IMG/VR virus record: IMGVR_UViG_3300006141_000002
Length of the DNA: 64,000 bases
DNA from: a virus
Lineage: Duplodnaviria > Heunggongvirae > Uroviricota > Caudoviricetes
Strand: one strand, 5' to 3'
Below, one piece after another: positions 24,114 through 63,872 of the stretch; the first letter of the stretch is position 1; every line of letters begins with the position of its first letter. A program made the position numbers and the translations under genes. A model generated the notes under the pieces. It made no database searches. It was not told the origin of the DNA and worked only from the letters and a program-made list of their open reading frames with translations.

Positions 24114-24155
24114 AAGAGGGGAGCGGCACACGCCGCGCCCCTCTTTTTTTTTTTC
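24114..24155 (+). terminator. rho-independent terminator
   Basis: GAGGGGAGCGGCACACGCCGCGCCCCUC followed by U11. Confidence 0.7.
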
Positions 24156-24166
24156 GTTCGCCCTCT

Positions 24167-24301
24167 GGTGACATACAAGCCCATGCGTATATGTAGGGCG
24201 AACGGCACAGCACCGCCCCACAGCACCGCCACCGCCCACGCCGCACGGGTGACATACAAGCCCATGCGTATATGTAGGGCGAACGGCACAGCACCGCCCC
24301 A
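24167..24301 (+). repeat. tandem 54-bp direct repeat (x2) each carrying the GTGACATACAAGCCCATGCGTATATGTA promoter-like motif
   Basis: exact duplication separated by 27 nt. Confidence 0.65.
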
Positions 24302-24329
24302 CCAAAAAAAACAAGATACCAATGCAGCC

Positions 24330-32562: not shown

Positions 32563-32648
32563 CTATGAGAGTGTAGCTCAGTGGCAGAGCGGGGCAGATA
32601 CATGCCTGTCAACCGGATATGCGCTGCGTGGGTTCGATTCCCACCACT
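32563..32648 (+). tRNA. tRNA-like gene, anticodon unresolved (possibly CAU)
   Basis: acceptor GAGAGUG/CACUCUC, D arm AGCUCAGUGGCAGAGC, T arm GUGGGUUCGAUUCCCAC; the anticodon region did not fold cleanly by eye. Confidence 0.4.
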
Positions 32649-32657
32649 CTCTAATAT

Positions 32658-35364: not shown

Positions 35365-35646
35365 GTGGATCTGAAAACTGTTATGCTTGGTAGCGATACG
35401 GTTGTCGTCACTGAAAACGCAGATGGCGATCCGTACTTGATTCAGGCTAAGTACCTTCAGGGCGTCGTTGACGATTGGAATGGTGAATGCAATTTTGTTC
35501 CAGCCAACGATGCAAAAGTGCTCTTTGCTATGTATAATGGTCATCCCATCAATCCTTACGATTACACCGACTTCGAGTCTCTGCTCAATATTCTAACTCG
35601 GGGGGGGGTGAGTCTCAATGGTAGATTGGCCAGACACTCCGCTTGA
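35365..35646 (+). CDS. small protein with C-terminal DFESLLNILTRGG + 12-aa extension (GTG start)
   Basis: RBS GGAGGTG; 9-G tract 35600-35608 encodes RGG. Confidence 0.4.
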   Translation: MDLKTVMLGSDTVVVTENADGDPYLIQAKYLQGVVDDWNGECNFVPANDAKVLFAMYNGHPINPYDYTDFESLLNILTRGGVSLNGRLARHSA

Positions 35647-35974
35647 GATTTCAATGCTATTCAACGGTGTCATCATCCATTGTCCTGACAAAGACTTGGT
35701 AGATGAACTGTTTTCGTTTTTAGAAGAAAACGATATAAAATGGTATGGTGATGAGCCAGTTGGAGAAACTCATTGGCATGAGAACAGAGAAGAAACCTGT
35801 TATCGCATTGAACCGCGAGGAACAATGAAATATGGGAGCAGAACATGTTACTCAGACAGCGCATACAGAAATTATATCAAATGCACATTTTACGGCGTGG
35901 AGCCCGACTTTGAAATCTCCGATGCCGGATTTGAAGCAATTATCTCTGCGGGGGGGGGTAATCAAGGGAGGTAA
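35618..35974 (+). CDS. small Cys-containing protein, C-terminus DAGFEAIISAGGG+NQGR (paralog of 35980)
   Basis: paralogy with next gene; 9-G tract 35950-35958 at C-terminus. Confidence 0.45.
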   Translation: MVDWPDTPLEISMLFNGVIIHCPDKDLVDELFSFLEENDIKWYGDEPVGETHWHENREETCYRIEPRGTMKYGSRTCYSDSAYRNYIKCTFYGVEPDFEISDAGFEAIISAGGGNQGR

Positions 35975-35979
35975 GACAA

Positions 35980-36294
35980 ATGTGGGACAGGCCATTTGAT
36001 ACATCAATGCTGGGAGAAAACAGCTATGTTGCTGTAAATTGCCCAGAAGCAGATTTGGAGCGTGAATTTGCCGCAATATTAGTCGCGTTTGGCATCAAAT
36101 ACCCGACCGGCGAGAGTCCTCTGAAGAAAAATTACTGGGAGAAACACCGTGGTAATTTCTGCTACTATATCAGAGGCGATACTGTGAGATATGGGTCAAA
36201 GAACGATGCGGACGACTACATGAAATGCACTTTCTATGGGGAAGAGCAAGAGGACATCTCCGACGAAAGTTTTGCGGCTATCATCGGGAGGTGA
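35980..36294 (+). CDS. small Cys-containing protein, C-terminus DESFAAIIGR
   Basis: paralog of 35618 gene (CP..DL..EF...GIK..W....CY.I....YGS...Y.KCTFYG). Confidence 0.45.
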   Translation: MWDRPFDTSMLGENSYVAVNCPEADLEREFAAILVAFGIKYPTGESPLKKNYWEKHRGNFCYYIRGDTVRYGSKNDADDYMKCTFYGEEQEDISDESFAAIIGR

Positions 36295-36298
36295 TTAA

Positions 36299-36742
36299 GT
36301 GGAACTTTCCGATTTGGTAGGAACACACAAACTGTCAGGTGTCGAAACCGGACGTATATGTGTGGATGATAGTTGGGGTGAATCACAGGATTGCAACTTC
36401 GTAAAGTTTACGCTTGACGGTGTTCACTACATGGCTGTCGAAGACCCGGAAGATGGATATAGAAGCAGATGCAGGGAGCTTGTTGTGTCCGATGATCCGC
36501 CGAGATATTCGTTTCCGCCGCAGGCCATGAAATGTTACATGAAGAACGAAGAAGATGGCGGATACGATAATGACATCCTGGTGATGCAAGACGAGGTAAC
36601 TGACGAGATCATTTTGGAGGTTGGAACCGGAGACTATAACGACTGGTATCCATACTGCCACTTTGAATACCATCCAGAGGGGATGGCCTGCAATAACCCG
36701 GAAATATCAGAAGACGCATTCAATCGAATCATCAGAAGTTGA
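36299..36742 (+). CDS. small acidic Cys-containing protein, C-terminus SEDAFNRIIRS (GTG start)
   Basis: RBS GGGAGGTGA; shares the C-terminal motif family. Confidence 0.4.
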   Translation: MELSDLVGTHKLSGVETGRICVDDSWGESQDCNFVKFTLDGVHYMAVEDPEDGYRSRCRELVVSDDPPRYSFPPQAMKCYMKNEEDGGYDNDILVMQDEVTDEIILEVGTGDYNDWYPYCHFEYHPEGMACNNPEISEDAFNRIIRS

Positions 36743-36748
36743 CAAGAG

Positions 36749-36782
36749 CCCCGTAGCTGAAAAGTTACGGGGTTCTTTGCGG
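36749..36782 (+). terminator. rho-independent terminator
   Basis: CCCCGUAGC-UGAAAAG-UUACGGGG then UUCUUU. Confidence 0.5.
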
Positions 36783-36893
36783 CCTGATCGGCCCCACCTC
36801 CTCGTGGTTCAGGCTGGGGAGCCCCCGATGGGGGGGGGTGAGCAAACGGGGTACATATTAAGGGCAAAGCCCGAACAGAAAGGATGTATCAGT

Positions 36894-37295
36894 ATGGCAA
36901 AGATCACCATTGCTGGTGACGCGATCATCGTCACCAGCGGCAAGAGCCTCAAGGCTCTGAAGACGCTGGAGGAGTACCGCCCGAAGGCTCTTCGTCTCAT
37001 CGAGACCGATGAGAACGGTAAGAAGGAGGAAATCTTCCGCGTGGAGACCGCCGCTGCTGCCGGCAGCATCAACCAGAACGGCGCGACTTTCGCCTCCGAG
37101 ACCCACGACGAGGCGAAGCTGGCCACCATCACGATTCCCGTCCCCGCTGGGACTGAGAACGTGATCGACTATGCTGCCAAGCTGGTCGGCAAGGCCGTGG
37201 TTCGCCTGAACAAGGTGGAGGCCGGCATCGACGATGCCCTGGCCGAGGTCGAGGCTGAGAACGCCGAGGTCATGGCTAACATCACCGTCATCTAA
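36894..37295 (+). CDS. hypothetical protein upstream of the Ubl-conjugation genes
   Basis: RBS AAAGGA; 133 aa, Ala-rich; in-frame ATG at 36828 immediately followed by a 9-G tract. Confidence 0.45.
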   Translation: MAKITIAGDAIIVTSGKSLKALKTLEEYRPKALRLIETDENGKKEEIFRVETAAAAGSINQNGATFASETHDEAKLATITIPVPAGTENVIDYAAKLVGKAVVRLNKVEAGIDDALAEVEAENAEVMANITVI

Positions 37296-37382
37296 GGATG
37301 GCTAAGTCCGGGCGGGGGAATCCCCGCCCGGCAACACAAACCTGTCAACCCAAAATTTTTTGAATAAGAAGGAGAATGAATC

Positions 37383-37637
37383 ATGATTAACGTCACTATC
37401 GGTAACAACCTGAAGCGCGCCCGTTTCAACCTGAACCCCAACACCACCATCCGCCAGGCTCTGGAGAGCACCCAGGGCGAGACCGGCATCGACTACTCCG
37501 TGGGTATGCTGTCCCTGGACGGCGAGACCGTCACCGGTGCCAAGCTGGATCAGACCTTCGCCGAGATGGGCTACACCGGCGAGCCCGGCCACGACAAGTG
37601 CTTCCTGATCTCCGTCGTCAAGGCTGACAACGCCTGA
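37383..37637 (+). CDS. 84-aa candidate ubiquitin-like (beta-grasp-sized) protein
   Basis: size, beta-beta-alpha start (MINVTIGNN..KRARFNL..TTIRQALES), and position directly upstream of the E2/JAB/E1 genes; no terminal GG. Confidence 0.35.
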   Translation: MINVTIGNNLKRARFNLNPNTTIRQALESTQGETGIDYSVGMLSLDGETVTGAKLDQTFAEMGYTGEPGHDKCFLISVVKADNA

Positions 37638-37726
37638 TCAGACCCACCGCAGTCCCCTATACATAGGGCCGAGGGCTCCCATCTGAGCGGTGGGAGCCCT
37701 TAAATCTTTCAGAAAAGGAGCAGGCT

Positions 37727-39220
37727 ATGTTCTCAAAAGAAATCACTGGTCTGACTCTCACCAATGAGATCGCATCGACCGTATTCCCGAATATCGGCGG
37801 AGATAAGTTCCGCAATGACGAGTCGTTCGTTGCGACCTTGAGAGCTTTGCTGTATAGCAGGGTTCCGAAAGAGGAGTCAATCACACTGCGATATAAAAGC
37901 ACAGACTACAGTTCCGGGCAGTTATCTGGCTCGTCTCCGAGAGACTGCGTCAGGGCTTTCTTTAACCGAACTCCGATTATGGATGGTTCAACCGGCATTT
38001 TGCTCATCCATTCATTTGAGGGGAGCGACGAGAGCAACACAACCTGCTTCGAGAAACTCGTTGAAGGTGTTCCAAAGACAGTCTCTGGATACAAGCTCCT
38101 GGCGGATCTGTCCGCATGGATTGAGAGCGACGCAAAGTTCCGCGCCAAGGTCTATGTGAACGAGGAGTACCGCAACACCATCATCTTCACGGAAAAGATG
38201 AACATGAAGCGGTGGCACATGCTGGAGTCTCTGATTTCCCGCTACTTCCCGTGGTACTTCGAGTCCAATCCGATGACTGACGAGGAGATTGAGATCGTCA
38301 AGACGCTCACAAAGCGTTACGCCCCCAGCTATGAAACGAAGATTCAGGAGTTCGCCAAGCGGTTTGACTTCCGGTCACAGGTTATCCGCAATCAGTTGAC
38401 CGGCTTTGAAACACACTTTGACCGCCGGAAGCTGGAGTCCGTCCGCAGCCAGATCAACGATATGGATCGCAGGATGCGTGATTTGGAGAGCACTTTCTCC
38501 AATTACTACCAGCAGATGGACGACCTGAGAACGCAGGAGTGCGGTCTGGTCGATAAAATCACACACGGAGGCGGCGCGGAGAGCAGCGAGCTTTTGGACT
38601 ACTTCCTATGCAACAATTCGCTGCATCTGGTCAGCGTATACAATGGCGAAATCAAGTTCATTGTAACCACCACGGTTGCAAACTTCGATCCTGACGCAGC
38701 GGAGTCCGTCATTCAGAATAACCGTAGCTACATCTATGAATATCGTGACAACGAAAATATGACGGTAGAGCGCATTAAGCGTCTGATGACGGAGATTTTC
38801 GTCAAAGAGACGATGAAGATTCGCATTTGCGCCGCATATTCGCTGAACTTCGATAACGGCAGGTACGCCGGGATTAGCGGATACGATTTCCCGTCGGATA
38901 TCATCATGGATCACACGCCGAACCAGCACATCCAGGCGTTTCACTGCCTTGGTGGAAATGAGGCGACAATTCGCCAATCTATGCGTAACCGGGATTATGT
39001 CGGCGCGGTAGCTGCTTGTGTTCAGTCGGCAAAGAGCGTCAATGTTCAGGAGAGCGCAACAACCGGCAAGATGACGCAGTTGCTGTTCTCGAACAGGATC
39101 GGTAAGGTAATCGAAATGCCCGACGGTACGACCAAGACGCCGTTTGAGGCCGTATTGTGGTTGGAGGAACAAGATGTCAAGGCGAAGAAAGAAAAAGAAC
39201 AGGAGGAGAGCCATGAGTAA
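37727..39220 (+). CDS. 497-aa protein with C-terminal E2(UBC)-like active-site region
   Basis: HTPNQHIQAFHCLGG reproduces the E2 HPN-x7-Cys spacing; operon context with JAB and E1. Confidence 0.4.
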   Translation: MFSKEITGLTLTNEIASTVFPNIGGDKFRNDESFVATLRALLYSRVPKEESITLRYKSTDYSSGQLSGSSPRDCVRAFFNRTPIMDGSTGILLIHSFEGSDESNTTCFEKLVEGVPKTVSGYKLLADLSAWIESDAKFRAKVYVNEEYRNTIIFTEKMNMKRWHMLESLISRYFPWYFESNPMTDEEIEIVKTLTKRYAPSYETKIQEFAKRFDFRSQVIRNQLTGFETHFDRRKLESVRSQINDMDRRMRDLESTFSNYYQQMDDLRTQECGLVDKITHGGGAESSELLDYFLCNNSLHLVSVYNGEIKFIVTTTVANFDPDAAESVIQNNRSYIYEYRDNENMTVERIKRLMTEIFVKETMKIRICAAYSLNFDNGRYAGISGYDFPSDIIMDHTPNQHIQAFHCLGGNEATIRQSMRNRDYVGAVAACVQSAKSVNVQESATTGKMTQLLFSNRIGKVIEMPDGTTKTPFEAVLWLEEQDVKAKKEKEQEESHE

Positions 39221-40085
39221 GCCCATTAAGCTCACGGACGAGCTGCTGCAAAAAATTCAGGAGGAGTTCATCGCAAAGGTGAAGTCCACCAAGATGTTTG
39301 ACGGAAAGCTGGAATACAGCCGGACGTTCAAGTGGGAGGGCGATGACGACCGGGCAACTGTCTACCTGTCCTCGATTGCCTTCGCCAAGATGAACTCGCT
39401 CATTCAGCAGTTCAACGACGAGGTCGCGTGGCACGGCGTGGTTCACCGTGATGAGCAGGATCCGTCCATCTTCCACATCACCGACATTTTGGTATACCCG
39501 CAGGTTGTTACCGGCGCAACGGTCAACACCGATCAAGAGGCGTACCAGACGTGGCTTTACTCCTTTGATGATGATGTGTTCAATAACATCCGGATGCAAG
39601 GACACAGCCACGTCAATATGGGCGTGTCTCCCTCTGGTGTGGACACAACTCACCAGGAGAAGATTCTGGAGCAAATCTCCGATGACGACTACTACATCTT
39701 CATGATCTGGAACAAGCGGTACGAGCACTTTGTCCGCATCTTCGATCTGAAGAACAACACCCTGTACGACACGGCAGATGTTGATGTGTATATTGGAGAT
39801 GTCGGCGTGGATCTTCAGGCTTTCATCAGCAGCGCCAAGGAGATCGTCACCAACAGAACCTATAAGCCTGTCACCGGTTTTCAGGGAACCTATCAGCAGA
39901 CGCAGACGCGGGTCGTCACACCCATCAGTCAGACAACAACGCCGGCGGCGACGGCCGGTGCGAGCGTCGTCGGAGTCAAAACAAAACCGAAGGTAAACGG
40001 AGGTGATACCGGCATTGGCCGGTCCTTTTCCGACTACCAATTCGACGAAGACGATCCCTATGACCGCCTATACCTCGGACAGTAA
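39213..40085 (+). CDS. JAB/MPN+ (JAMM) metalloprotease, deubiquitinase-like
   Basis: HSHVNMGVSPSGVD matches the JAMM HxHx7Sx2D motif; upstream Glu in EVAWHG; 8-nt overlap with upstream gene. Confidence 0.65.
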   Translation: MSKPIKLTDELLQKIQEEFIAKVKSTKMFDGKLEYSRTFKWEGDDDRATVYLSSIAFAKMNSLIQQFNDEVAWHGVVHRDEQDPSIFHITDILVYPQVVTGATVNTDQEAYQTWLYSFDDDVFNNIRMQGHSHVNMGVSPSGVDTTHQEKILEQISDDDYYIFMIWNKRYEHFVRIFDLKNNTLYDTADVDVYIGDVGVDLQAFISSAKEIVTNRTYKPVTGFQGTYQQTQTRVVTPISQTTTPAATAGASVVGVKTKPKVNGGDTGIGRSFSDYQFDEDDPYDRLYLGQ

Positions 40086-40102
40086 GAAAGGAGAGACAAA
40101 CA

Positions 40103-40774
40103 ATGGATTTGGCGAAGTCCTACGAATTCTTCAAGCCGGATATGCTCGAATCGCGGATTCATATCATCGGCTGTGGAGCGATTGGTTCCACGGTCGCTGA
40201 GAATCTGGTGCGGTTCGGCATTACGAAAATCACGCTGTATGACTTCGATACCGTAGAAGCCCACAACATTGCCAACCAGATGTTCCGGAATACGGATATC
40301 GGCAAGGCCAAGGTTGATGCTTTGGCTGAGTATCTCACCGAGATCAATCCGGACTGCGCCCCCGATCTGAAGCTGGTCAAAGAGGGCTGGACAGGCCAGC
40401 GTCTCTCCGGTTATGTGTTCCTGGCGGTGGACAACATTGACCTCCGCCGGGAGATCGCCACCTCCTGTAAGGAGAACACGTTCGTCAAGGGGATGTTCGA
40501 CTTCCGGATGCGGCTGACGGACGCCCAGCACTATGCCGCTGACTGGAGCGACAAGAAGATGGTGGAGAACTTTATCGACAGCATGGCGTTCTCTCATGAT
40601 GAGGCAAAAGAGGCGACGCCCGTTTCTGCCTGCAATATCACACTGTCGGTTGTTCCGACGGTGCGAACGATCGTTGCCTACGGCGTAGCCAACTTCATCA
40701 ACTTCGTGAAGGGCGAGAAACTCCGCAAGATGATTCTTGTGGATGCTTTTGAATTCGACGTGATCGCCGTGTAA
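40103..40774 (+). CDS. E1-like ThiF/MoeB-family adenylyltransferase
   Basis: IHIIGCGAIGSTVAENLVRFGITKITLYDFDTVEAHNIANQMF matches the Rossmann GxGxxG + DxDxVExSNLxRQ-like ThiF signature. Confidence 0.7.
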   Translation: MDLAKSYEFFKPDMLESRIHIIGCGAIGSTVAENLVRFGITKITLYDFDTVEAHNIANQMFRNTDIGKAKVDALAEYLTEINPDCAPDLKLVKEGWTGQRLSGYVFLAVDNIDLRREIATSCKENTFVKGMFDFRMRLTDAQHYAADWSDKKMVENFIDSMAFSHDEAKEATPVSACNITLSVVPTVRTIVAYGVANFINFVKGEKLRKMILVDAFEFDVIAV

Positions 40775-40794
40775 GGCATCACGTTTTACGATAG

Positions 40795-40835
40795 TTCTAT
40801 AGGGGCAGTGGCTTTGGTTGCCGCTGCCCCTTCCA
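40795..40835 (+). terminator. rho-independent terminator after the E1 gene
   Basis: GGGGCAGUGGC-UUUGGUU-GCCGCUGCCCC then UUCC. Confidence 0.5.
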
Positions 40836-40839
40836 TATA

Positions 40840-41218
40840 GTCTGTATTGCATTACTTTCAGAGTTATTCTGAGGGTGCTCTGTATTGTAAATCAGAGTTG
40901 CGCATGGCTGGGAGAAGGGACACCCCGCCCGGAGGCGGAATCTGAAGGCGCCTGCCCGCCACCGAGGTCAAGAGGTAATAAATAAACTGTTTTCTACTGC
41001 TCCAAATACGCAAAGAACTCTTGACATCTCGACCAGAAAGGTGACGGACAGCAAACAGGAAGACAGATGGCGACCCCAAGAACCATCGGACCGCCGCAAA
41101 TCACTCACCAGATTACCCACCGAGCCCGCACTCAGTCCCAGCTCTCAAGTACCCATCGCATCCTGAATTCCTCAACCTACTGTATACCAGAATACAGACA
41201 TCAGGAGGTATTAAAAAT
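40840..41218 (+). ncRNA. candidate retron-type ncRNA (msr/msd) or structured leader upstream of the RT
   Basis: GC-rich hairpins; ATAGTCTGTATTG at about 40840 complementary to CAGAATACAGAC at about 41184 (a1/a2-like). Confidence 0.2.
40878..40897 (+). repeat. hairpin repeat copy 1 (CTCTG-TATTGTAAAT-CAGAG) with 25-nt conserved 3' extension
   Basis: 5 copies in window, stem covaries in copy 5. Confidence 0.6.
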
Positions 41219-42358
41219 ATGCCATACATAACCGTCATGCAATCGCCTGCATACCATCAGATATCATTTGAGGAAATCATATCTGGTGAGGTCAACATGC
41301 AGTCTATGATAACTTCAAACAGCACCAATACCAGAACGCATTTCGCACAGCGACTCAAGCCACAGTTTCTGGATCGGTTCGATTTCGCCGGTATGGTCTC
41401 CGCTCTGGAGAGTTTTTGCGAACAAAATGCCGAGCTGTATGCCGTTCCGAGAGAAGCCCTCTATACCACATTCCATATTCCGAAGAAGTCCGGCGGCCTG
41501 CGTGAGATCAATGCCCCTGTGCCAGAACTGATGACGGCGCTTCGGAATCTGAAGACTTTGTTTGAGACCAAGATGTTTGCGCTGTACCACACCTCCGCCT
41601 TTGCCTATGTTAAGAATCGTTCCACCATTGACGCCATCAAACGTCACCAGAGGAATGACAGTCATTGGTTCTTAAAGACGGATTTCTCGAACTTTTTTGG
41701 GGACACAACGCTGGTATTCCTTCGGTATTCGCTCTCTTTGATTTTCCCGTTCAGCGAGATTGTCAAGTCAGAACGGGGCAGAGCAGCACTGGACAAGGCA
41801 CTCAACCTCTGTTTTCTTCATGGCGGATTGCCGCAGGGCACGCCGATTTCTCCGATGCTCACAAATCTGATGATGATCCCCCTTGATCACAAGGTATACA
41901 ATACCCTGCGTGATTTTAACGGGCAGTCGTTCGTTTACACCAGATACGCAGACGACTCTCTAATTTCAAGCCGGAGAGAGTTTGACTACAATAAGGTCAT
42001 CGACTTCATCAATCAGACGCTGGATGATTTCCATGCGCCGTTCAAGATCAAGGATGAGAAGACGAGGTATGGTTCCAGAGCCGGCAGTAATTGGAACCTC
42101 GGGCTCATGCTCAATAAGGACAATGAGATCACCATCGGTCACAAGAACAAGCAGCGTTTTCGTGCAATGATCAGCAACTACATCCTCGACCGTAAGAACG
42201 GAATTGTCTGGGAACTGCACGATGTTCAGGTTTTGCGCGGCCTTATCAACTACTACCGGATGGTTGAAGAAAAGTATGTTGACGAGGTCATCAAGTACAA
42301 CAACGAAAAATATCAAACGGACGTAATGCGTACCATCCATGAGGATTTGGCCGCATAA
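41219..42358 (+). CDS. retron-type reverse transcriptase
   Basis: IPKKSGGLREI, NRSTIDAIKRH, FLKTDFSNFFG, LPQGTPISPMLTNL, YTRYADD; C-terminal region alignable to the retron INxKKT...VTG...IG region with NLG for VTG. Confidence 0.7.
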   Translation: MPYITVMQSPAYHQISFEEIISGEVNMQSMITSNSTNTRTHFAQRLKPQFLDRFDFAGMVSALESFCEQNAELYAVPREALYTTFHIPKKSGGLREINAPVPELMTALRNLKTLFETKMFALYHTSAFAYVKNRSTIDAIKRHQRNDSHWFLKTDFSNFFGDTTLVFLRYSLSLIFPFSEIVKSERGRAALDKALNLCFLHGGLPQGTPISPMLTNLMMIPLDHKVYNTLRDFNGQSFVYTRYADDSLISSRREFDYNKVIDFINQTLDDFHAPFKIKDEKTRYGSRAGSNWNLGLMLNKDNEITIGHKNKQRFRAMISNYILDRKNGIVWELHDVQVLRGLINYYRMVEEKYVDEVIKYNNEKYQTDVMRTIHEDLAA

Positions 42359-42404
42359 ATAAGCAAAATTTTGTAATGTATAGCCTTTTGTTCCTCAAAA
42401 GGCA

Positions 42405-42424
42405 CTCTGTATTGTAAATCAGAG
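42405..42424 (+). repeat. hairpin repeat copy 2 + conserved extension TAACGAATGGCTGGGAGAAGGGAGCC
   Basis: preceded by a small variable hairpin GCCTTTTG..CAAAAGGC. Confidence 0.6.
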
Positions 42425-42730
42425 TAACGAATGGCTGGGAGAAGGGAGCCTGCCAGGCTGCGCAGTGCTGCCGGCCGCGACGGCAGCAGGAGATGCTAAA
42501 CACCCTTACCAACATCACGAAGAACGGAACTATTACCGAACTGCACATTTCGCCAGGAAATCAGCAGGAACTCCGTCACAAAAATTCCTGAAACCTGACA
42601 CCAGTTCGGACAGCCGGGAACACACGAGATGACATTCCCAGACTCACCTCTCTGGAGGAAACCATGGCCAGCTTCCTATCCCTTATGGTAGATTACAAAG
42701 TTTATGCAAAGCATGAAAGAGGTGGTTGAT

Positions 42731-43282
42731 ATGATTCAACTGGCAGTCGAAGTCAGTGATTTGGATTGCGGCGAATCCAAAGTCATTGTACTGCCATGTA
42801 ATCTGCGGGCAGAATTAGAGAATCATTATGATTACATTATTCTGTCCACCACGCCCAACATTCCAATCAGCCGAAACGACGATATCAGTGGATTGAACGA
42901 TATACTGGATGATATCAACAGCGAAAATCCTGGGATGACGGAAGATTATTTGAAGGTTCTGATGGAAGCTTCGTCTTCTGGTGACCTGTTCGATCCGGAA
43001 TTTGTGCGTAAGCTGAAAGAAAACGATTTTATGTTCGAGGACATATCTGATCTTCATTGGGCGATGAACGCAAAGGAGACCGCAGCTTGTTATCTGGCGA
43101 CTGAACTCAAAGTGCCGTTTGACCACGGTGTTACAGACGAGATGCTTGACACCCTCAGTAAAGACGTGCTGACCGACTATATCAACTGGGGACAGGTTTG
43201 GGATCAGTATTCTTCTGTTGGTTTTCGGGTCGTTGAGCAAGAGCCGCCGACCGGCGGGCGATATATTGTGCATATAAAATAA
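42731..43282 (+). CDS. acidic hypothetical protein (DNA-mimic/anti-restriction-like composition)
   Basis: RBS AAGAGGTGG; Asp/Glu-rich. Confidence 0.4.
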   Translation: MIQLAVEVSDLDCGESKVIVLPCNLRAELENHYDYIILSTTPNIPISRNDDISGLNDILDDINSENPGMTEDYLKVLMEASSSGDLFDPEFVRKLKENDFMFEDISDLHWAMNAKETAACYLATELKVPFDHGVTDEMLDTLSKDVLTDYINWGQVWDQYSSVGFRVVEQEPPTGGRYIVHIK

Positions 43283-43321
43283 CTTTGTTGTTGCGATGTA
43301 TTTTAAGTCGAAAGACTTAAA

Positions 43322-43341
43322 CTCTGTATTGTAAATCAGAG
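43322..43341 (+). repeat. hairpin repeat copy 3 + conserved extension
   Basis: ACTCTGTATTGTAAATCAGAGTAACGAATGGTTGGGTGGAGG. Confidence 0.6.
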
Positions 43342-43810
43342 TAACGAATGGTTGGGTGGAGGATGACGGCTTGGCGGCCGCAGTGCGTGCGATCAGAGAT
43401 CCCGCGGCAGCCGACGACCACCTGCTCAGGCGCCGACCCGCACAGGGGCCATCAGGACAAAGGTCACCAAACCCGCCAACACACTGAGACTCAAGGAGTT
43501 CGGCACCCGATGTCAGGAACCCACAGACACACGACATCATTCCAAACCAGATGACAGCAGTAACCGGGAGCTGTATCCGGATGCAGGGAGCCCTCCTCGT
43601 AGCCTGCCGAGATATAATGCAGATCACAAACAACAAAGTGCGTATTTCAAGGACTTTAGGACGCTGATCCGAGTATTTATTTGAAATAAGAGGTAGTGGA
43701 AAATCCCGAGTTCAGCGTCCTTTTGCCATCCCATGCAGTATGGCTATTATGTATGGGATAAAACACAGGTTTTAAGTATTGCGCCAGACTTTCACGAAAG
43801 GGTGGTATCC

Positions 43811-44146
43811 ATGGCAAGGTATCAAATTGGAGATCGAGTAGAAGCTATCGTCAACAACCCAGATGAGAGTGACTATATCATGGTTGGCGATACTGGAACG
43901 GTGTGCGATATTGACGGAGATCATGTTGGTGTCGATTGGGATAATGAATTAGGTGAAGGACATGATTGCTCCGGAAATTGTGAGTACGGCCACGGGTGGT
44001 ATGTCCATACGAGATATATCAGGCCGTACGAAGATGATGTTGAAGATATCGACGAGAACTCCTTCCTTGGTGTCGCTCTCCGTGCGGGGGGGGTGACAAA
44101 GCGTGATGGAATTTCAAGTAGGAGATTGTGTCGAAGCTATTCGTAA
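43811..44146 (+). CDS. small SH3-like domain protein, C-terminus ENSFLGVALRAGG + 17-aa extension
   Basis: paralog of 44103 gene; 8-G tract 44086-44093 encodes AGG. Confidence 0.45.
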   Translation: MARYQIGDRVEAIVNNPDESDYIMVGDTGTVCDIDGDHVGVDWDNELGEGHDCSGNCEYGHGWYVHTRYIRPYEDDVEDIDENSFLGVALRAGGVTKRDGISSRRLCRSYS

Positions 44147-44384
44147 TCATCCAGACGGCAATCCTGATATCAAGATAGGCGACCTTGGCACAGTATGCAG
44201 GGTATCAGATAATATTGGTGTTAATTGGGGTAAGCCCATCCAAAGAGGACACGACTGCGGACATACTTGCAAGCATGGACTTGGATGGTATGTTGGACGC
44301 AATGAGATCAGGCTGTATGAACCAGAAGGAACCATCGACATTGAGGAAGACAGCTTTATGCGTATGCTTGGAGGTTCAAAATGA
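44103..44384 (+). CDS. small SH3-like domain protein, C-terminus EEDSFMRMLGG+SK
   Basis: shares GD.VEAI.N.PD......GD.GTVC.....GV.W......GHDC...C..G.GWYV with the upstream paralog. Confidence 0.45.
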   Translation: MMEFQVGDCVEAIRNHPDGNPDIKIGDLGTVCRVSDNIGVNWGKPIQRGHDCGHTCKHGLGWYVGRNEIRLYEPEGTIDIEEDSFMRMLGGSK

Positions 44385-45324: not shown

Positions 45325-45429
45325 CCCCGAAAGGGGAACGTGCAAACATGGTATTTAATAAGACAGCGCACCCATGCGGTCTATAACAATGTGGGGAACG
45401 GCCCGGCTATACGCCGGGCCTCTTTTACG

Positions 45430-45847
45430 GGGCCGTAAAGGTTTCGACGGGGTTCTGAGAGAGTAAGATTCGCAGGTAGAGACCGCCTTAAGGCTAAACA
45501 AAAAATGAAATGACAATGATATGAGTGTTGTTATGATCCATCCCGCTTTCGCCGCCTTCATGGCAGAGAGGGTCGCCGCTTAACTGTCGGCAGGATTCCA
45601 AAACGGTACACCTCTGGCTGGGTAAGTACCTGCGGTCGAGGATACGCCAGAAAAACAGTTTTCCTTGTAATCTGTTCAAAAAGACAAGGTGGTGGAGGTG
45701 TACTTAACTGGTACGCCCTGGGGTAGATTTGGATTCCATCTTGGTGCCCCGCCATAAGGCATCCACCTAAAAGGAAACCTATTGCGTAAAAAGGTCTTGC
45801 TCATGTAGGAATTTCGGACGCGGGTTCGATTCCCGCCGGCTCCACCA
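45430..45847 (+). ncRNA. ssrA: tmRNA (SsrA)
   Basis: 5' GGGGCCGUAAAGGUUUCGACGGGG and 3' GGACGCGGGUUCGAUUCCCGCCGGCUCCACCA match the tmRNA tRNA-like domain consensus; candidate tag ORF ending ..AFMAERVAA-stop near 45540-45590. Confidence 0.7.
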
Positions 45848-46431: not shown

Positions 46432-46872
46432 ATGACACGTCAGGAATTTATCGAAGGTGTAAACTCATTCGGCGACCTAATCAGTTTCTGTGTTGATGAG
46501 GGAATTGATGATCTCTGCAACGATGTTTATGATGCAGAATACCTCAATGAAATCCTGCTGGAAACAATCGGCAATATGCGTGACTGGGAAGAAATCCGTG
46601 GCCTTCTGGCGAACATTCCGACTCGTTGCGATTACTACCGCGAGGATGGATATGGCGGATATGAGGACGCAGATTATTCATTTGACGACTACAAGAACGA
46701 AGTCCTCCGGCATATGGACGAAAACGAAGCGTGGGATGAAGAAGAAGAAAATGTCGAAGACGATATTGAAGAAGACACCGATGAAGATGCCGACGACTGG
46801 TTTGCGCCTGCTGACATCGAGGAGGATATTGAAACGGACAGCTTTATAGCTGTGCTTGGGAGGGCGAGCTGA
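46432..46872 (+). CDS. highly acidic protein, C-terminus ETDSFIAVLGRAS
   Basis: Asp/Glu-rich 146 aa; shares the C-terminal motif family. Confidence 0.5.
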   Translation: MTRQEFIEGVNSFGDLISFCVDEGIDDLCNDVYDAEYLNEILLETIGNMRDWEEIRGLLANIPTRCDYYREDGYGGYEDADYSFDDYKNEVLRHMDENEAWDEEEENVEDDIEEDTDEDADDWFAPADIEEDIETDSFIAVLGRAS

Positions 46873-52985: not shown

Positions 52986-53282
52986 ATGAGACAAGTAAGA
53001 TGTGGAGTGTTTGAAACAAACAGCAGCTCCACGCATAGCATCGTTATCTGCACGCAGGAAGAATACGAGAAATTCAAGCAGGATGAACTGATGTATGACT
53101 GCTTCGATGGCAAACTCGTTCCGTATTCAAAGCTGCTCCTCGAATCTGAGGAATACCGATATCAGGATCATCGACACTTGGGTTACAGTGACTGGGGTTC
53201 TATGGAATCATACTCCCACTACTTCACTACGCCGAGTGGAGACAAGATGGTCGCGTTTGGTGAGTACGGGAGAGACGGATAA
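52986..53282 (+). CDS. hypothetical protein with MRQVRCGVFETNSSSTH N-terminus (paralog of 47934)
   Basis: RBS AAAGGAGAG. Confidence 0.4.
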   Translation: MRQVRCGVFETNSSSTHSIVICTQEEYEKFKQDELMYDCFDGKLVPYSKLLLESEEYRYQDHRHLGYSDWGSMESYSHYFTTPSGDKMVAFGEYGRDG

Positions 53283-53300
53283 GATAAGGGAGGAACCTTC

Positions 53301-54221
53301 GTGAGTATTTTAGGCGAGTACACCAACGGGAATTACCGTGTGAGAATCTATAGCGACGGAACGAAGGTTCGTGAAAACGACCTGGATTTCTTTGAGCCTG
53401 AGTTCCCAGAGTCGTTTGACATCAAGATCACAAACCAGTGTGATATGGGATGCGCTATGTGTCACGAGGACTCAAGACCGGATGGCAGACATGGAGACAT
53501 CCTGCATCTGCCATTCTTGGATTCTATCCGCCCCTATACTGAGCTTGCTATTGGCGGCGGCAATCCGCTCGCCCATCCAGATTTGATTCCATTTCTACAG
53601 CAACTCAAAGAGCGGAAGCTGATTCCCAATATCACGGTTAACAAAACGCATTTCATGAAAAATCTTCCCATGCTCCGATACCTGACGGAGCATGGGTTAA
53701 TTTATGGGCTTGGTATCTCCTATCTGGACTGGACGGAAGACACAGACAGCTTTATTGAGATGGTTAAGTATTACCCCAATGCTGTCATTCACATCATCAA
53801 CGGTATGATTTCGATGAAGGGGTTCAGGTCGCTGGCTGGTCACAACCTGAAGATTCTGATTCTCGGGTATAAAGATTTCCGGCGCGGCGAGGACAACTTG
53901 GAGCGGCACGGCGAAGACATCGCGGCTAAAAAGGTTGCACTCTATAACGCATTGGGTGACGCTGTGAAACATGGCTTCTTCAAAGCAGTCAGCTTTGACA
54001 ATCTTGCTATTCGCCAGCTCGATGTAAGGCGGCTGATGTCGGAGGATCAGTGGAAGGAATTCTACATGGGGGACGACGGTATGGATGGAGAGTTCACGTC
54101 CGCCTCCATGTATATCGACGCTGTCGAGGGGAAATTCGCAAAGAATTCCTGTTGCTCCATCCGGCACGATATTACAAACGATATTACAGAAATGTTCCAA
54201 TATCTGAAGAAACAAGGGTGA
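53301..54221 (+). CDS. radical SAM enzyme (second copy in window)
   Basis: ITNQCDMGCAMCHE (CX3CX2C), ELAIGGGNPL; GTG start with RBS AAGGGAGG. Confidence 0.55.
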   Translation: MSILGEYTNGNYRVRIYSDGTKVRENDLDFFEPEFPESFDIKITNQCDMGCAMCHEDSRPDGRHGDILHLPFLDSIRPYTELAIGGGNPLAHPDLIPFLQQLKERKLIPNITVNKTHFMKNLPMLRYLTEHGLIYGLGISYLDWTEDTDSFIEMVKYYPNAVIHIINGMISMKGFRSLAGHNLKILILGYKDFRRGEDNLERHGEDIAAKKVALYNALGDAVKHGFFKAVSFDNLAIRQLDVRRLMSEDQWKEFYMGDDGMDGEFTSASMYIDAVEGKFAKNSCCSIRHDITNDITEMFQYLKKQG

Positions 54222-54225
54222 TACG

Positions 54226-54708
54226 ATGCACAGCAGAATTTTTCAAATTGAGAGCTTGCCAGTCGATGTAGAAGACCGCATCTGCGCAGATTCTATTCCA
54301 GAGTGGTTCACTGGTTCCATCGCTGATTATGTTTCCGATGTTAGCGACGAGAACCGCAATGAAGAACTTGAATGGTTGATGAGTACGAGTTTCGGCCGGG
54401 TGTGTACCAGAGACGGCGATACGCTCACATTCAAAATTGATATTGGCGACTACTTTGACGAATATTTTGAGAAGTTTAAGAAGGCGGTCGATGCTCTGTC
54501 AAAAATTGACTTCAATCAATTTGTTGCAAAATCAACCGTCTGTTGCGGCCTTGACTCGGCTATGTACGACCTGAAAAAATCGTACAGTGATCAATTCGGC
54601 TTTTATGTGTGGAATGAAGATGAACTGTATACAATGCAGCAGTGGATGCGCACGGTAGAGCCGCTGGGGACGTACTATTTGGGCGGCGTTGTTGACTATC
54701 ACTTCTGA
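54226..54708 (+). CDS. hypothetical acidic protein
   Basis: 160 aa ORF. Confidence 0.45.
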   Translation: MHSRIFQIESLPVDVEDRICADSIPEWFTGSIADYVSDVSDENRNEELEWLMSTSFGRVCTRDGDTLTFKIDIGDYFDEYFEKFKKAVDALSKIDFNQFVAKSTVCCGLDSAMYDLKKSYSDQFGFYVWNEDELYTMQQWMRTVEPLGTYYLGGVVDYHF

Positions 54709-55037
54709 TGGAACAAAAGGTCTTGTCTTTTATTTCTCGCTTTACCAACGACGGGAAGTATCAGGAGGTCATCAAAATCTTCACTTGCGGAGCGTGCTAT
54801 TGGTTCGCCAAGATTTTATACGAACGTTTCAAGCAGTATGAGTGGGATGCTAATGTAGCAATCGTCTATGATGCTCCTGTCAACCATTTCGGATGCCGGA
54901 TTGATGGCCATATCTATGACATAACCGGCGACTGTACGGATCAGTACGATTGGAAAAGATGGCCAACATTTGATGACCTCAGTTGGGAACGCAGAATTGT
55001 CCGGGATTGTATCTTGTTTGAGGAGGTAGATGAATGA
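54708..55037 (+). CDS. hypothetical protein
   Basis: ATGA overlap with upstream gene. Confidence 0.45.
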   Translation: MEQKVLSFISRFTNDGKYQEVIKIFTCGACYWFAKILYERFKQYEWDANVAIVYDAPVNHFGCRIDGHIYDITGDCTDQYDWKRWPTFDDLSWERRIVRDCILFEEVDE

Positions 55038-55192
55038 AGGAATCAAATAACTGCGTACATAACAAGATGATTGAGTGCTCCGGGGAGTTTCGACCCTGCT
55101 ACAAGTGCGGTTGGAACCCAGAAGTACGCGAGAAGCGTGTGCAGAAAGCACTCGCCGCACGAAAACCAAAGCAGACGGGGATAAAGCTGTGA
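55034..55192 (+). CDS. 52-aa zinc-ribbon protein
   Basis: CVHNKMIEC...CYKCG; RBS GAGGAGGT. Confidence 0.3.
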   Translation: MKESNNCVHNKMIECSGEFRPCYKCGWNPEVREKRVQKALAARKPKQTGIKL

Positions 55193-55524
55193 GTACACCA
55201 AAGAAACCAATGGTTCCGCATATTAGGGCAGACAATGATAACTTTGGCTGCATTCTCAACTGCGCTGTTCGGTATGCCATCGGCCGCCAGACATACATGC
55301 CTGGTGTTGTGATCGACTTCATCATTCCCTTCCTTCCACATGTGACCAAGAAAACGCTTTACGTGCTTGACCAGGATATAACCGACCAAAAGTATAGAGG
55401 TGGTTACGGAGACAAGAATATCGACGAGCCTTTATGGATGCGGTTTCATCAGATGGTCATAGAGGAAGAGCTGCGGCGTTGCGTGGAACCGTACAAAGAT
55501 TGGAGGATAGAGCAGGATGGTTGA
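55189..55524 (+). CDS. hypothetical protein (GTG start)
   Basis: ORF continuity; alternative ATG at 55210. Confidence 0.35.
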   Translation: MSTPKKPMVPHIRADNDNFGCILNCAVRYAIGRQTYMPGVVIDFIIPFLPHVTKKTLYVLDQDITDQKYRGGYGDKNIDEPLWMRFHQMVIEEELRRCVEPYKDWRIEQDG

Positions 55525-55837
55525 ATTTCAGTCCGTATCTGATTTCTTTCGATCTCACCAGAACGACATCTTTCGATTCTGGGTGTACCGGAAGGTGTAT
55601 ACGCCATATGAACAGCAGCAGGCTTTCATGGATGAGAGTATGTTCGAGGATTCAAGCGCAAACTATGGCTTCGTTATTGAGTGCGTCCCTCTGGGTAACG
55701 GCGATTTCCTAGTAGGTTTCCAAACCGTTGCCGACCCGGATGAAATCGGGGTGCAGTCCTACAACGGGCTGGTTGAATATTACAAGTTGAGCGAGATCCG
55801 CATGGGTCTATATCAGCCAACAACAGAGGAGGAATAA
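55517..55837 (+). CDS. hypothetical protein
   Basis: 106 aa overlapping upstream gene by 8 nt. Confidence 0.4.
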   Translation: MVEFQSVSDFFRSHQNDIFRFWVYRKVYTPYEQQQAFMDESMFEDSSANYGFVIECVPLGNGDFLVGFQTVADPDEIGVQSYNGLVEYYKLSEIRMGLYQPTTEEE

Positions 55838-55841
55838 AAGG

Positions 55842-56480
55842 ATGTATCTGAAAGAAGCTTTTCGGTATCAGAATTTTCTGAGCCGGATGGTTGACCGCAC
55901 CACAATGTATCTGGGCAACCGCAACTACATCACAAAGACGACGCAGGTGCATCTGCGTAAGAAGGCAAATCACGAGGCGGAGGACGAGACGGTCGAGGTG
56001 GTCGTTGATCGTCCGTTCGACTGTACCAACAATCAACTGGTGAGTTTCCTTGAGCATCTGATGAAGGAGAAGGAGAAGCTCACGGCCGCCATCAGCGCAG
56101 CAAAGCGTACCAGCGATATCGACATTGACGCGGAACTGGCCAATAATCGAACTCGCCAAAAGGTGGCTGGAGTCCTTGCCGACATGAGCAAGGCGCGTCC
56201 CTCCGAGAGCGTTATCCGTGGAACCGCCTACAAGTTCAACGGCGAGGGCAATCAGGTCCCGTACAACTACGATGTCAAGCAGGTTACGACCATCGACTTT
56301 GACCGGAACAAGGTCAGAGACGCGAGCCGTGCCATGGTTGCAAAGTCTGACGAGGTTTCCACCAGTATCGACAAGCTGATGGTGGAACTGGTTGTCGAAT
56401 ACGATCCCGAATACAGTGTCAACGACTCCTTCGAGGATATCGTAGCACAGTTTATCGAAGCAGCCCACCCTGCGGAGTAA
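55842..56480 (+). CDS. hypothetical protein
   Basis: 212 aa; RBS AGGAGGAA; terminator-like hairpin after stop. Confidence 0.45.
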   Translation: MYLKEAFRYQNFLSRMVDRTTMYLGNRNYITKTTQVHLRKKANHEAEDETVEVVVDRPFDCTNNQLVSFLEHLMKEKEKLTAAISAAKRTSDIDIDAELANNRTRQKVAGVLADMSKARPSESVIRGTAYKFNGEGNQVPYNYDVKQVTTIDFDRNKVRDASRAMVAKSDEVSTSIDKLMVELVVEYDPEYSVNDSFEDIVAQFIEAAHPAE

Positions 56481-56499
56481 ACATGAGACAGCCATTCGG

Positions 56500-57040
56500 C
56501 TGTCTCGTTCAGGGTCAGAGTGGAATATGAAATTTCAACCGCTTCAGCCACAGACGAAGTGTAGTGCTGCGGGGCGAATTGAGTGCGCCATAGAACTCAA
56601 ATGAAATCTTTCAAAAACAGGAAGATTCCGCCATTTTAAGGTAATGGTCTGGACTTGAAATATATAAATGTGGACTGATAATCCATATCAAGAAAGTAGG
56701 CGTTACCTGTTCATCGTACTTTTTTTGACGCAAATCGTTACGGCGTTCTAAGCATCTACTCGAAAACTCACCAACTCGAACATTGCGGAGCACGATACAC
56801 GCCTCCATATACGCCGTTCTAATTAAAATCTTTGATTGCTGCGTCTTGAAAACGCAATTCTATAATGAGGATGTACCCGTCCTCTTCAGATAATTTTACT
56901 CGTATGAGCAAAGAAATTGGTTGAAATGAATTAGGAAACCCTGACTCTGAACAAGACAGCCGAACATAAGAAACAGCACCCGGACTACCAAATCCATGGC
57001 GGTTCGGGTATTTTTTTCGCACAAATACGAAAGGGAGGAA
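56500..57040 (+). other. 540-bp ORF-free AT-rich region ending in a stem + U7 (candidate sRNA or origin)
   Basis: no ORF; ACCCGGA...UUCGGGU AUUUUUUU at about 56977-57020. Confidence 0.2.
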
Positions 57041-57045
57041 TCATC

Positions 57046-57618
57046 GTGGGACTTGATATGAATGTGTTTCGTATCCAAAAACCGGCTATCGACAAAGGGA
57101 AAGTGTATGACAGAGATGAGCTTGATGGCATTGTACTTAGCAGTGAGGACATCGTGTCTCCAATGTACCGGCAGCTTGCACCGTACTGCGTGGAAGTCCG
57201 AGTTGTCAACCATTACTACGATTTGAAGAAGATCGGAGAGGACTACGGGCTGGAAGATGCTCATATCGGAGGTTGGAGTTGCGACAGCAACGGTTCCTCC
57301 GCCACAAGCATCTATGGAAAGAAAAACGGCGCGAGCGAACATGTGACCATCCCAGATGAGCTGATTGAGAGCAAATACACCATTGACCGCGAGGAAACCT
57401 GCTATGTGTGCGACCGGGATGAGGTATGTTACTGGCGTAAGGCGTACGACATTCAAGACTGGTTCCACAAAAACATCCCGGAACCCGTTGAGAATACAGG
57501 TTACTATGTGCTGAACGAACAGCAGATTGCGGCTTTCAATAAGGAATTCCCGGAAGACAACATTCTTGTAGAGGCGCCAAGTGAGACTTCTGCGCTTGTC
57601 TACTGGGAGTGGTATTAA
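57046..57618 (+). CDS. hypothetical protein (GTG start)
   Basis: RBS AAGGGAGG. Confidence 0.4.
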   Translation: MGLDMNVFRIQKPAIDKGKVYDRDELDGIVLSSEDIVSPMYRQLAPYCVEVRVVNHYYDLKKIGEDYGLEDAHIGGWSCDSNGSSATSIYGKKNGASEHVTIPDELIESKYTIDREETCYVCDRDEVCYWRKAYDIQDWFHKNIPEPVENTGYYVLNEQQIAAFNKEFPEDNILVEAPSETSALVYWEWY

Positions 57619-57631
57619 GGAGGTCATACAT

Positions 57632-58039: not shown

Positions 58040-58050
58040 GAGGTGAGATC

Positions 58051-58554: not shown

Positions 58555-58563
58555 GTGAAGCCA

Positions 58564-58995: not shown

Positions 58996-59012
58996 GACGG
59001 GAGGGATACAGT

Positions 59013-59594: not shown

Positions 59595-59601
59595 GTGCAT
59601 C

Positions 59602-62204: not shown

Positions 62205-62207
62205 ACG

Positions 62208-63803: not shown

Positions 63804-63813
63804 TCCAGCGCAA

Positions 63814-63845
63814 CGGGGCGGGCGTAAGCCCGCCCTTTTGTATTG
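63814..63845 (+). terminator. rho-independent terminator
   Basis: GGGGCGGGCGUAAGCCCGCCC then UUUUGUAUU. Confidence 0.55.
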
Positions 63846-63872
63846 CGCGCCTATGTTGAAGGTGGTGAAAGA

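Follow-up and report, generated by a model that had tools for sequence, protein, structure and literature searches.

This study concerns four poly-G tracts, T1 to T4, in a 64,000-nucleotide (nt) stretch of DNA (the window) from a tailed phage of the Caudoviricetes, IMG/VR record IMGVR_UViG_3300006141_000002. Table 1 lists their positions and the surrounding features. A preliminary description of this DNA had reported runs of G9, G9, G9, and G8 at these sites, which we confirmed, and had placed each run at a junction of tandem small genes. This holds for T1, T2, and T4, whereas T3 is part of a predicted self-cleaving ribozyme of the hepatitis delta virus (HDV) type.

Table 1. Coordinates of features in the window (aa, amino acids; SD, Shine-Dalgarno sequence)
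Feature	Coordinates	Strand	Description
T1 poly-G	35600..35608	+	G9 in window, G6-G9 in other copies; last codons of 35365 gene
T2 poly-G	35950..35958	+	G9 in window, G8-G10 elsewhere; last codons of 35618 gene
T3 poly-G	36830..36838	+	G9 in window, G8 or G9 elsewhere; P4 of predicted HDV-like ribozyme
T4 poly-G	44086..44093	+	G8 in window, G8-G10 elsewhere; last codons of 43811 gene
ORFan gene carrying T1	35365..35646	+	product of 81, 85, or 92/93 aa by tract length
ORFan gene carrying T2	35618..35974	+	product of 114, 118, or 126 aa; C-terminal motif EISDAGFEAII
Tract-free tandem paralogue of 35618 gene	35980..36294	+	ends ..DISDESFAAIIGR-stop, stop within next SD (GGGAGGTGA)
Small SH3-like gene carrying T4 (phrog_22041)	43811..44146	+	product of 95, 98, or 111 aa
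Tract-free paralogue of 43811 gene, in tandem	44103..44384	+	ends ..DIEEDSFMRMLGGSK-stop
Shared C-terminal motif	35935-35950, 36259-36285, 36706-36735, 44337-44371, 46825-46859		
Terminator-like hairpin	36749..36779	+	CCCCGTA-N10-TACGGGG, then TTCTTTG; read from sequence, not listed by consensus scan
HDV-like self-cleaving ribozyme (predicted)	36781..36852	+	leader of 36894 gene; predicted cleavage 5' of G36781
Ribozyme P1	36781-87 with 36809-15		
Ribozyme P2	36791-95 with 36848-52		
Ribozyme P3	36796-98 with 36806-08		
Ribozyme L3			UCCUCGU
Ribozyme P1.1	36800-01 with 36816-17		
Ribozyme P4	36821-26 with 36834-39		
Ribozyme putative catalytic C	36843		
Conserved 133-aa gene of unknown function	36894..37295	+	downstream of ribozyme
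Reverse transcriptase gene (RVT_1, phrog_2825)	41219-42358		flanked by three copies of 58-nt repeat
58-nt repeat, three copies	40863-40920, 42390-42447, 43307-43364		contains hairpin ACTCTG-N9-CAGAGT
81-bp tandem repeat, two copies	24167-24302		between T11 and A8 runs (24144-24311)
Transfer RNA (tRNA) call	32567-32652		ARAGORN, 86 nt, four-base anticodon (acat); Rfam tRNA 46.4 bits
Transfer-messenger RNA (tmRNA)	45429-45847		tag AVEDTPEKQFSL

The four tracts are the sole G or C runs of 6 nt or more in the window. All consist of G on the plus (sense) strand, in the part of the window with genes on that strand. A TGA or TAA comes immediately after each one, which bears out the earlier observation of a stop close behind every tract. 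Run lengths were compared with the analytic expectation of a first-order Markov model. G runs of at least 8 nt numbered 4, against 0.44 expected, while G or C runs of 6 to 7 nt were absent (14.8 expected) and those of 5 nt numbered 21 instead of 52; A/T runs matched expectation. The distribution of G/C run lengths is clearly bimodal and non-random: such runs are generally avoided, with four long exceptions, and runs of 6 to 7 nt have been purged from the rest of the window. Because runs of 8 nt or more are in excess and those of 5 to 7 nt are depleted, the pattern is not due to chance, as had been proposed. An uninterrupted run of about 7 nt or more in or beside a gene marks a hypermutable homopolymer, and G8 or G9 is present at all four sites.

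Length variation among natural copies

Comparison of tract lengths across related phage genomes, which the preliminary description had suggested, revealed length variation in 18 contigs of the same phage. These contigs were recovered by exact-protein look-ups of tract-free neighbor genes in independent metagenome assemblies (JGI, ENA/MEGAHIT, ENA/SPAdes, and Logan), and all lengths given here are those of assembly consensus sequences. The tracts are present and uninterrupted in every near-identical contig covering them, and their lengths differ. With the window listed first, the lengths were 9, 9, 8, 6, 8, 7, 8, 9, 6, 8, and 6 at T1; 9, 8, 9, 8, 10, 9, 9, 9, 8, 8, and 10 at T2; 9, 9, 9, 9, 9, 8, 9, 8, 8, 8, and 8 at T3; and 8, 8, 9, 8, 8, 8, 9, 10, and 9 at T4. 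Among contigs at least 99.6% identical to the window, all internal indels lie inside tracts. Contigs L024 and L026, with 0 differences in 3942 aligned columns, have 9 and 10 Gs at T2; L030 and L032, also with 0 differences, have 8 and 10; and the window and L024, one single-nucleotide polymorphism (SNP) apart, have 9 and 8 at T1. Three clades, 2.4 to 6% apart, all retain the tracts, and the tracts are polymorphic inside each. Altogether, at least 6 tract changes at three sites stand against about 10 SNPs at 3942 sites, which puts per-site tract change roughly three orders of magnitude above substitution.

Two control homopolymers, T11 (24144) and A8 (24304), were identical in every contig covering them. 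A control region without a G tract (53208-64000) contained a single indel in about 105 kb over ten contigs. In the structural module, five 20.6-kb contigs without a G/C run of 7 nt or more gave 2 gap openings in four pairwise comparisons, both in one contig. Tract length therefore varies among near-identical genomes far above background, and this variation, together with the stable controls, indicates that the tracts are slippage-prone, being neither sequencing errors nor fixed frameshift signals.

The preliminary description had itself raised sequencing error as an alternative, in which each tract has one true length and the rest are homopolymer or assembly errors. Long G runs are indeed error-prone, and some contigs have low coverage (5-11x). 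Nevertheless, the range is wide (6 to 10, and 8 versus 13 at a tract outside the window, T6), and the same alleles recur across independent samples and assemblers. G6 at T1, for instance, was found in L025, L030, and L032, three ENA assemblies that are mutual nearest SNP relatives, and a 55x contig carries a distinct allele (G7 plus an AG deletion) of a further tract, T5. With the T11 and A8 runs never varying and only 1 other indel in the control region, sequencing error as the main cause is largely excluded, and an artefact accounting for the whole pattern is scarcely credible.

Three other changes were seen among the contigs. The lone indel of the control region is A6 to A5 at 54574-54579 in L053, where a 160-aa gene call becomes 143 aa. 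The T11 and A8 runs enclose the two copies of an 81-bp tandem repeat near a strand switch, downstream of a sigma-factor-like gene; L041 has several extra copies, and copy number varies between samples while both runs stay constant. L025 has a deletion of about 174 bp in the 133-aa gene (window 36936-37118; L025 3958-3966) between 9-nt direct repeats, and its gene call is 70 aa.

Gene ends and Shine-Dalgarno junctions at T1, T2, and T4

Searches of the small tract genes against Pfam and PHROGs assigned no function, giving only a weak SH3-like signal and phrog_22041. At many junctions in this phage, the stop codon lies inside the Shine-Dalgarno (SD) sequence of the next gene, in the layout RGRGG-TRA, 4-9 nt, start codon (in the window at 35352, 35967, 36287, 28493, and 58039). 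At the end of the tract-free 44103 gene, GGAGGT likewise doubles as Gly-Gly codons and as the SD of the following gene. The 3' end of T1 with its TGA forms the SD of the 35618 gene (GGGGGTGA, 6 nt, ATG), and that of T4 forms the SD of the 44103 gene (GGGGGTGA, 6 nt, GTG); the assignment follows the layout of GGAGGTGA junctions elsewhere in the window. By contrast, 22 nt separate T2 from the next ATG, and the real SD, GGGAGGTAA, is a distinct sequence 9 nt downstream of the tract. Hence, the earlier suggestions that the tracts double as SD sequences and lie 10 to 15 nt before the next ATG stand for T1 (10 nt) and T4 (10 nt to GTG, 13 nt to ATG), the SD being formed by the 3' part of each, but fail for T2 and for T3, which belongs to the ribozyme and lies 56 nt from the ATG.

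T1, T2, and T4 directly follow a C-terminal motif, [DE]-I-x-[DE]-x-x-F-x-x-[IM]-[IL], which is common to several small genes, tract-free paralogues included, and is also present in a sister phage (L001, L045). Tract-free genes carry only 2-4 residues after it (the proteins end in AAIIGR, NRIIRS, RMLGGSK, or AVLGRAS), and homologues of the T1 gene end about 6 aa after it. Occurring in unrelated small proteins, it looks like a portable short linear motif, perhaps a docking site or degron. The SD-like GGAGG behind the motif is read as Gly/Arg codons. The terminal GG, which had been interpreted as a processed-like C-terminus alternating with a precursor, is thus explained without processing, because SD-like GGAGG sequences fall in the last codons; moreover, the tract-free paralogues end in IIGR, IIRS, and LGGSK.

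Since all three frames stop within 17 codons, a change in tract length only swaps the tail (0-17 aa). At T1, G8 gives TRGG-stop, 6 nt before the next start; G7 or G10 adds 4 aa, with the stop across the next start, and G6 or G9 adds 12 aa, with the stop 29 nt inside the next gene. At T2, G10 gives SAGGG-stop, 18 nt before the next start; G9 adds 4 aa and puts the stop in the real SD, 5 nt before the start, and G8 adds 13 aa, ending 20 nt inside the next gene. At T4, G7 or G10 gives RAGG(G)-stop, 6 nt before the next start; G9 adds 3 aa, with a TGATG overlap, and G8 adds 17 aa, ending 44 nt inside the next gene. These outcomes agree with the frame arithmetic of the preliminary description (one G fewer at T1 or T4 for TRGG-stop or RAGG-stop, one more at T2 for SAGGG-stop). 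The toggling that it had predicted between a short GG end and longer tails does occur at these three tracts, each frame class being found in nature, in the form of DNA variation. The short end typical of the family accounts for 7 of 31 observations and is not favored. The extensions read into the next gene out of frame and are missing from the homologues in L047 and L048 and from the paralogues; distant homologues of the T1 gene end in ESLLKLLKITQK-stop, near the short form, and do not conserve the extension.

The three tracts thus show the features of C-terminal phase variation: they lie in the final coding part, the tails span 0-17 aa, and the alternative lengths occur naturally. They are not on/off switches, a near-full-length product being encoded at every length; T3 is non-coding. 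In Helicobacter canadensis, C-terminal phase variation by 3'-terminal poly-G has been described (Snyder et al. 2010, PMC2823697), likewise with a run near the 3' end, near-full-length products in all three frames, tails of a few to about 18 residues, and lengths that vary in populations. That system is bacterial, and its tracts are longer (G10-G17). The present tract, in contrast, overlaps the ribosome-binding site of the next gene, so the stop-to-start geometry also changes.

The variation might alternatively overlie fixed recoding, in which a ribosomal -1/+1 frameshift on G GGG GGG, or RNA polymerase slippage, yields two products from each DNA sequence. Programmed frameshift and transcript-slippage sites (prfB +1, dnaX -1, and the phage tail-chaperone G/GT site) have a fixed length, and both of their products are conserved. 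The tracts share with them a slippery run, an SD-like G-rich sequence, and a nearby stop in another frame, runs of 8 or 9 Gs being intrinsically slippery; in addition, none of 8 contigs has an in-frame copy of a Dam-like gene located outside the window, whose expression could depend on slippage. A programmed site, however, requires a conserved length and frame, whereas the lengths here run from 6 to 10 over all three frames at each site, and the tails added in the other frames are short, lack conservation, and run into the next gene out of its frame. Rfam scans at T1, T2, and T4 found nothing credible, and T1 and T2 fold no better than shuffled sequences. The coding sequence upstream of T4 contains GUGUCGCUCUCC, to which the tract can pair over 11 bp; this hairpin (z = -2.4) would make the SD of the 44103 gene inaccessible. 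Because lengths vary between genomes at the DNA level, the tracts are not the fixed frameshift or transcriptional slippage signal that had been envisaged; such recoding is very unlikely, and some RNA- or ribosome-level slippage may occur on top of the DNA variation.

Fusion of paralogues by slippage was also considered, an idea from the sister phage, in which the two SH3-like paralogues (43811 and 44103 in the window) are fused in one frame and followed by a third copy (L045 1501-2028). Slippage at T1 or T4 never fuses two genes, because the TGA after the tract sits in the frame of the downstream gene.

T3 and a predicted HDV-like ribozyme

An Rfam scan of 36700-36900, run at a permissive threshold, matched RF00094 (HDV ribozyme) at 36779-36855 over the full model (1-89) with 34.8 bits (E = 5e-4 to 9e-4), below the gathering score of 50; drz-agam-1 and HDV-F-prausnitzii matched more weakly, and the ribozymes of relatives gave no Rfam detection in a 66-kb search. 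Immediately 5' of the predicted cleavage site lies a terminator-like hairpin, and relatives have a similar one ahead of their ribozyme. Downstream is a conserved gene whose 133-aa product found no match in a PDB sequence search. Leader and gene occur together in most of the related loci L001-L021 and in L063, as well as in a contig of a Eubacteriales metagenome-assembled genome (MAG); in L001-L021 and L063 the ribozyme leader lies about 60-130 nt upstream of the match start. The motif is absent in L003, L017, L022, L064, and L065, and in L062 the L3 region is altered.

When helices were sought separately in 11 distinct sequences, P1, P2, and P3 proved to be kept although their bases differed. 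P1 occurs as GGCCTGA/TCAGGCT, GCCCAT/ATGGGT, GCTCAC/GTGAGT, and GTCCGC/GCGGAT, among others; P2 occurs as GCCCC/GGGGT, GTCCC/GGGAT, GCTCC/GGAGT, and GCTCT/AGAGT; and P3 alternates between ACC/GGT and GCC/GGC. Covariation was scored on an alignment that was N-padded and registered by hand to the fold, which favors the fold, with P4 left out; MAFFT alone mis-registered P1. On this alignment, 97.4% of cells were paired, compared to 37-45% for slid partners, both sides had changed in 10 of 17 pairs, and 0 of 500 shuffles reached the observed score. The fold-fitted alignment thus carries the double pseudoknot of P1, P2, P3, and P1.1 with covariation. L3 (UCCUCGU) is invariant except at one position, the cleavage-site pair is G.U in 9 of 12 sequences and A.C in 3, and an A-rich J4/2 comes after a GA[GA]C or GGC motif in every aligned sequence. 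On the strength of this covariation, T3 is assigned to a putative HDV-like self-cleaving ribozyme with a predicted cleavage site.

In relatives, P4 is ACC-GAAA-GGT, long (L001), or missing, ranging from absent to more than 40 nt. The window phage has GCCCCC/GGGGGU, and the Gs left over are in the apical loop, T3 making up part of the loop and the 3' strand; G8 leaves a 6-nt and G9 a 7-nt loop. Clade B has ACCCCC in P4, which turns the closing G.U pair into A-U. T3 accordingly appears to vary in P4, the most dispensable part of the predicted ribozyme. Some gene callers extend the 36894 gene to 155 aa from an ATG at 36828 (L024), an extension that the preliminary description had also put forward. 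That ATG arises by accident in the G9 allele and does not extend the gene, since it exists only in that allele and lies inside the conserved ribozyme. A sigma-70 promoter with T3 as spacer was rejected as well: no hexamers fit, and the ribozyme explains the conservation.

The fold resembles known HDV-like ribozymes (Rfam RF00094 and RF02682, the latter from Faecalibacterium prausnitzii) and the "theta" ribozymes of gut phages (Kienbeck et al. 2024, PMC10879173) in its P1/P2/P3/P1.1 double pseudoknot, L3 UCCUCGU, G.U at the cleavage site, C in J4/2, and a P4 that is short or absent in relatives. Unlike the tRNA-adjacent theta ribozymes (PMC10879173), it is located between a terminator-like hairpin and a protein gene; its P4 also differs in carrying a length-variable G run, and it was identified from sequence with a score below gathering. 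We infer that it would cut read-through transcripts and leave the downstream messenger RNA with a structured 5'-OH end.

Relatives, further tracts, and interpretation

BLASTN of both tract regions against GenBank phages gave no match. A search of IMG/VR found as best relative a locus with 86% aa identity on one gene, the 133-aa gene, and gave no match with a metallophosphatase gene. That relative, L001, is the closest distinct one, is syntenic, and comes from one of the same samples. It has GGGGAGGGG at the T2 site (context GCGGGGAGGGGTAG) and GGAGGG at the T3 site (context CCTGGAGGGTGAGC). Set against these interrupted sites, the tracts would match an SD-like GGAGG in which G stands in place of A. 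The interrupted versions are the stable state.

With flanks fetched by means of window proteins, the genome of this large gut-type phage comes to about 141 kb. Its structural module (window 1-22000, minus strand; L066-L070) hits the Pfam SPbeta families YonD, YonB, YomW, YomV, YomU (tube), and YomN and includes a 2675-aa tape-measure protein. Judging from these families, the phage is a distant SPbeta-like virus, uncultured; its host is probably a Firmicute, and MAG hits give a weak indication of Clostridia/Eubacteriales.

At least six poly-G tracts exist in this phage, two of them (T5 and T6) within 7 kb past the 3' end of the window. T5 interrupts a Dam-like N6-adenine methylase gene midway, about 1.3 kb past that end (L052 12098, L049 13098, and L053-L059); a reconstruction with G9 gives a continuous PF05869 match (E = 1.4e-29). 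In eight contigs the run is G8, 10, 8, 8, 7, 7 (plus AG deletion), 10, and 8, none of them in frame, so the methylase would be off for the most part or else be made through slippage. T6, about 6.5 kb past the window, falls in the SGGGDS PP-loop motif of a PAPS-reductase-like gene (L052 17331, L053 17684, and L054 17682); G8 leaves 326 aa intact in two contigs, and G13 splits the gene into 46 and 281 aa in one. Unlike T1 to T4, these two behave like classical on/off frame switches. They show that unstable G runs characterize the phage-host system as a whole.

Hypermutable polyG tracts with a shown phenotype are known from Campylobacter Fletchervirus phages (Sorensen et al. 2021, Cell Rep 35:109214, cited in PMC12633550), and a 2025 preprint (PMC12633550) describes "contingency loci" of T-even and other phages. 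As far as these accounts go, the shared features are homopolymers of 7-11 Gs, slippage variation between close genomes, and frame changes in phage genes. According to the same accounts, the Fletchervirus tracts lie inside receptor-binding or other genes, which they switch on and off, whereas T1 to T4 sit in last codons, SD junctions, or a predicted ribozyme loop and cannot switch off the gene that carries them. The phage here also differs in being an uncultured SPbeta-like one, probably of a Firmicute.

Taken together, our data point to a known mechanism in a new phage example, with no evidence of a novel one. We consider it probable that the tracts are slippage-prone homopolymers (simple sequence repeats), tolerated hot-spots whose effects at T1 to T4 are small: a swapped tail, possibly altered coupling, and a different P4 loop size. 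Their lengths would change by slipped-strand mispairing during DNA replication, specific to G/C runs, and the tracts may have arisen when a G-rich, SD-like GGAGG became pure G by an A-to-G change. Within the window they would persist only where every length is viable. For T1, T2, and T4, these would be the last 2-3 codons of small accessory genes, where only the tail and the stop shift; for T3, the dispensable P4 stem, where it lies in the apical loop and the 3' strand. The four tracts would then be by-products of near-neutral effect that tune translational coupling modestly at most. Several points weigh against this explanation. The lengths are consensus values, and with only 5-11x coverage in several contigs, a few of them could err by one G. 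The basis for calling the tracts near-neutral is the lack of a preferred frame in the 31 observations. The tracts have stayed uninterrupted through 2.4-6% divergence in three clades, which fits weak selection and by a rough estimate would happen by chance about 1 time in 6. The T4 hairpin and the placement right after the shared C-terminal motif could mean function.

These last points lead to the view that the tracts are adaptive contingency loci, that is, random switches kept by selection, which alternately cover and uncover the C-terminal motif common to the small early proteins and might also reset the translational coupling of tandem paralogues or ribozyme efficiency. Tract positions are conserved over the three clades, all three coding tracts come directly after the motif, and the stop toggles from before to across to 29-44 nt inside the next gene; the SD at T4 can be sequestered with upstream coding sequence, and the same genome has tracts in Dam and PAPS-reductase-like genes, which are classic phase-variable targets. 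Precedent exists in H. canadensis (PMC2823697) and, by the account cited in PMC12633550, in Fletchervirus phages. On the other hand, no frame is preferred (short form 7/31), the extensions are unconserved read-through, the sister phage manages with interrupted, stable sequences, and the carrying genes have no assignable function in Pfam or PHROGs. On balance, we regard an adaptive role as unlikely. Somewhat less likely still is a phage "phasome," in which the tracts of the small early proteins, the ribozyme, and the Dam and PAPS-reductase-like genes are together selected as bet-hedging switches. If true, a docking- or degron-like motif would be hidden or exposed, translational coupling reset, self-cleavage tuned upstream of a conserved gene, and DNA-modification functions switched, each burst being diversified against host defences.

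A few other features of the window and its relatives were recorded. A link of the tracts to the nearby reverse transcriptase, by A mutagenesis of the diversity-generating retroelement (DGR) type, was rejected: no DGR-type template/variable repeat pair was seen in 38-47 kb, and no such pair involves the tracts. For the ARAGORN call with a four-base anticodon, the candidates are a tRNA that decodes quadruplets, a tRNA with an intron, or a mis-fold. Besides it, the window contains a tmRNA and 11 further tRNAs. RAGATH-36 RNA was found upstream of tRNA genes in L019 (2420-2583, 96 bits, above gathering) and L021 (3200-3327, 34 bits, below).

The instability of these tracts carries a warning for annotation, as it generates spurious frameshifted, fused, or extended calls, such as the 81/85/92/93-aa and 114/118/126-aa products and the false 155-aa extension. 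A by-product of the analysis is a covariation-supported family of putative HDV-like ribozymes in the leader of a conserved phage protein gene. Hypermutable homopolymers are known from few phages (Fletchervirus, scattered reports on BPP-1 and PB1-like phages, and the 2025 T-even preprint). Here, homopolymer hypermutation is seen directly in natural populations of an uncultured SPbeta-like phage, DNA-modification genes included, and selection would shape where the tracts persist: at gene ends, at SD junctions, and in a dispensable stem of a predicted ribozyme.

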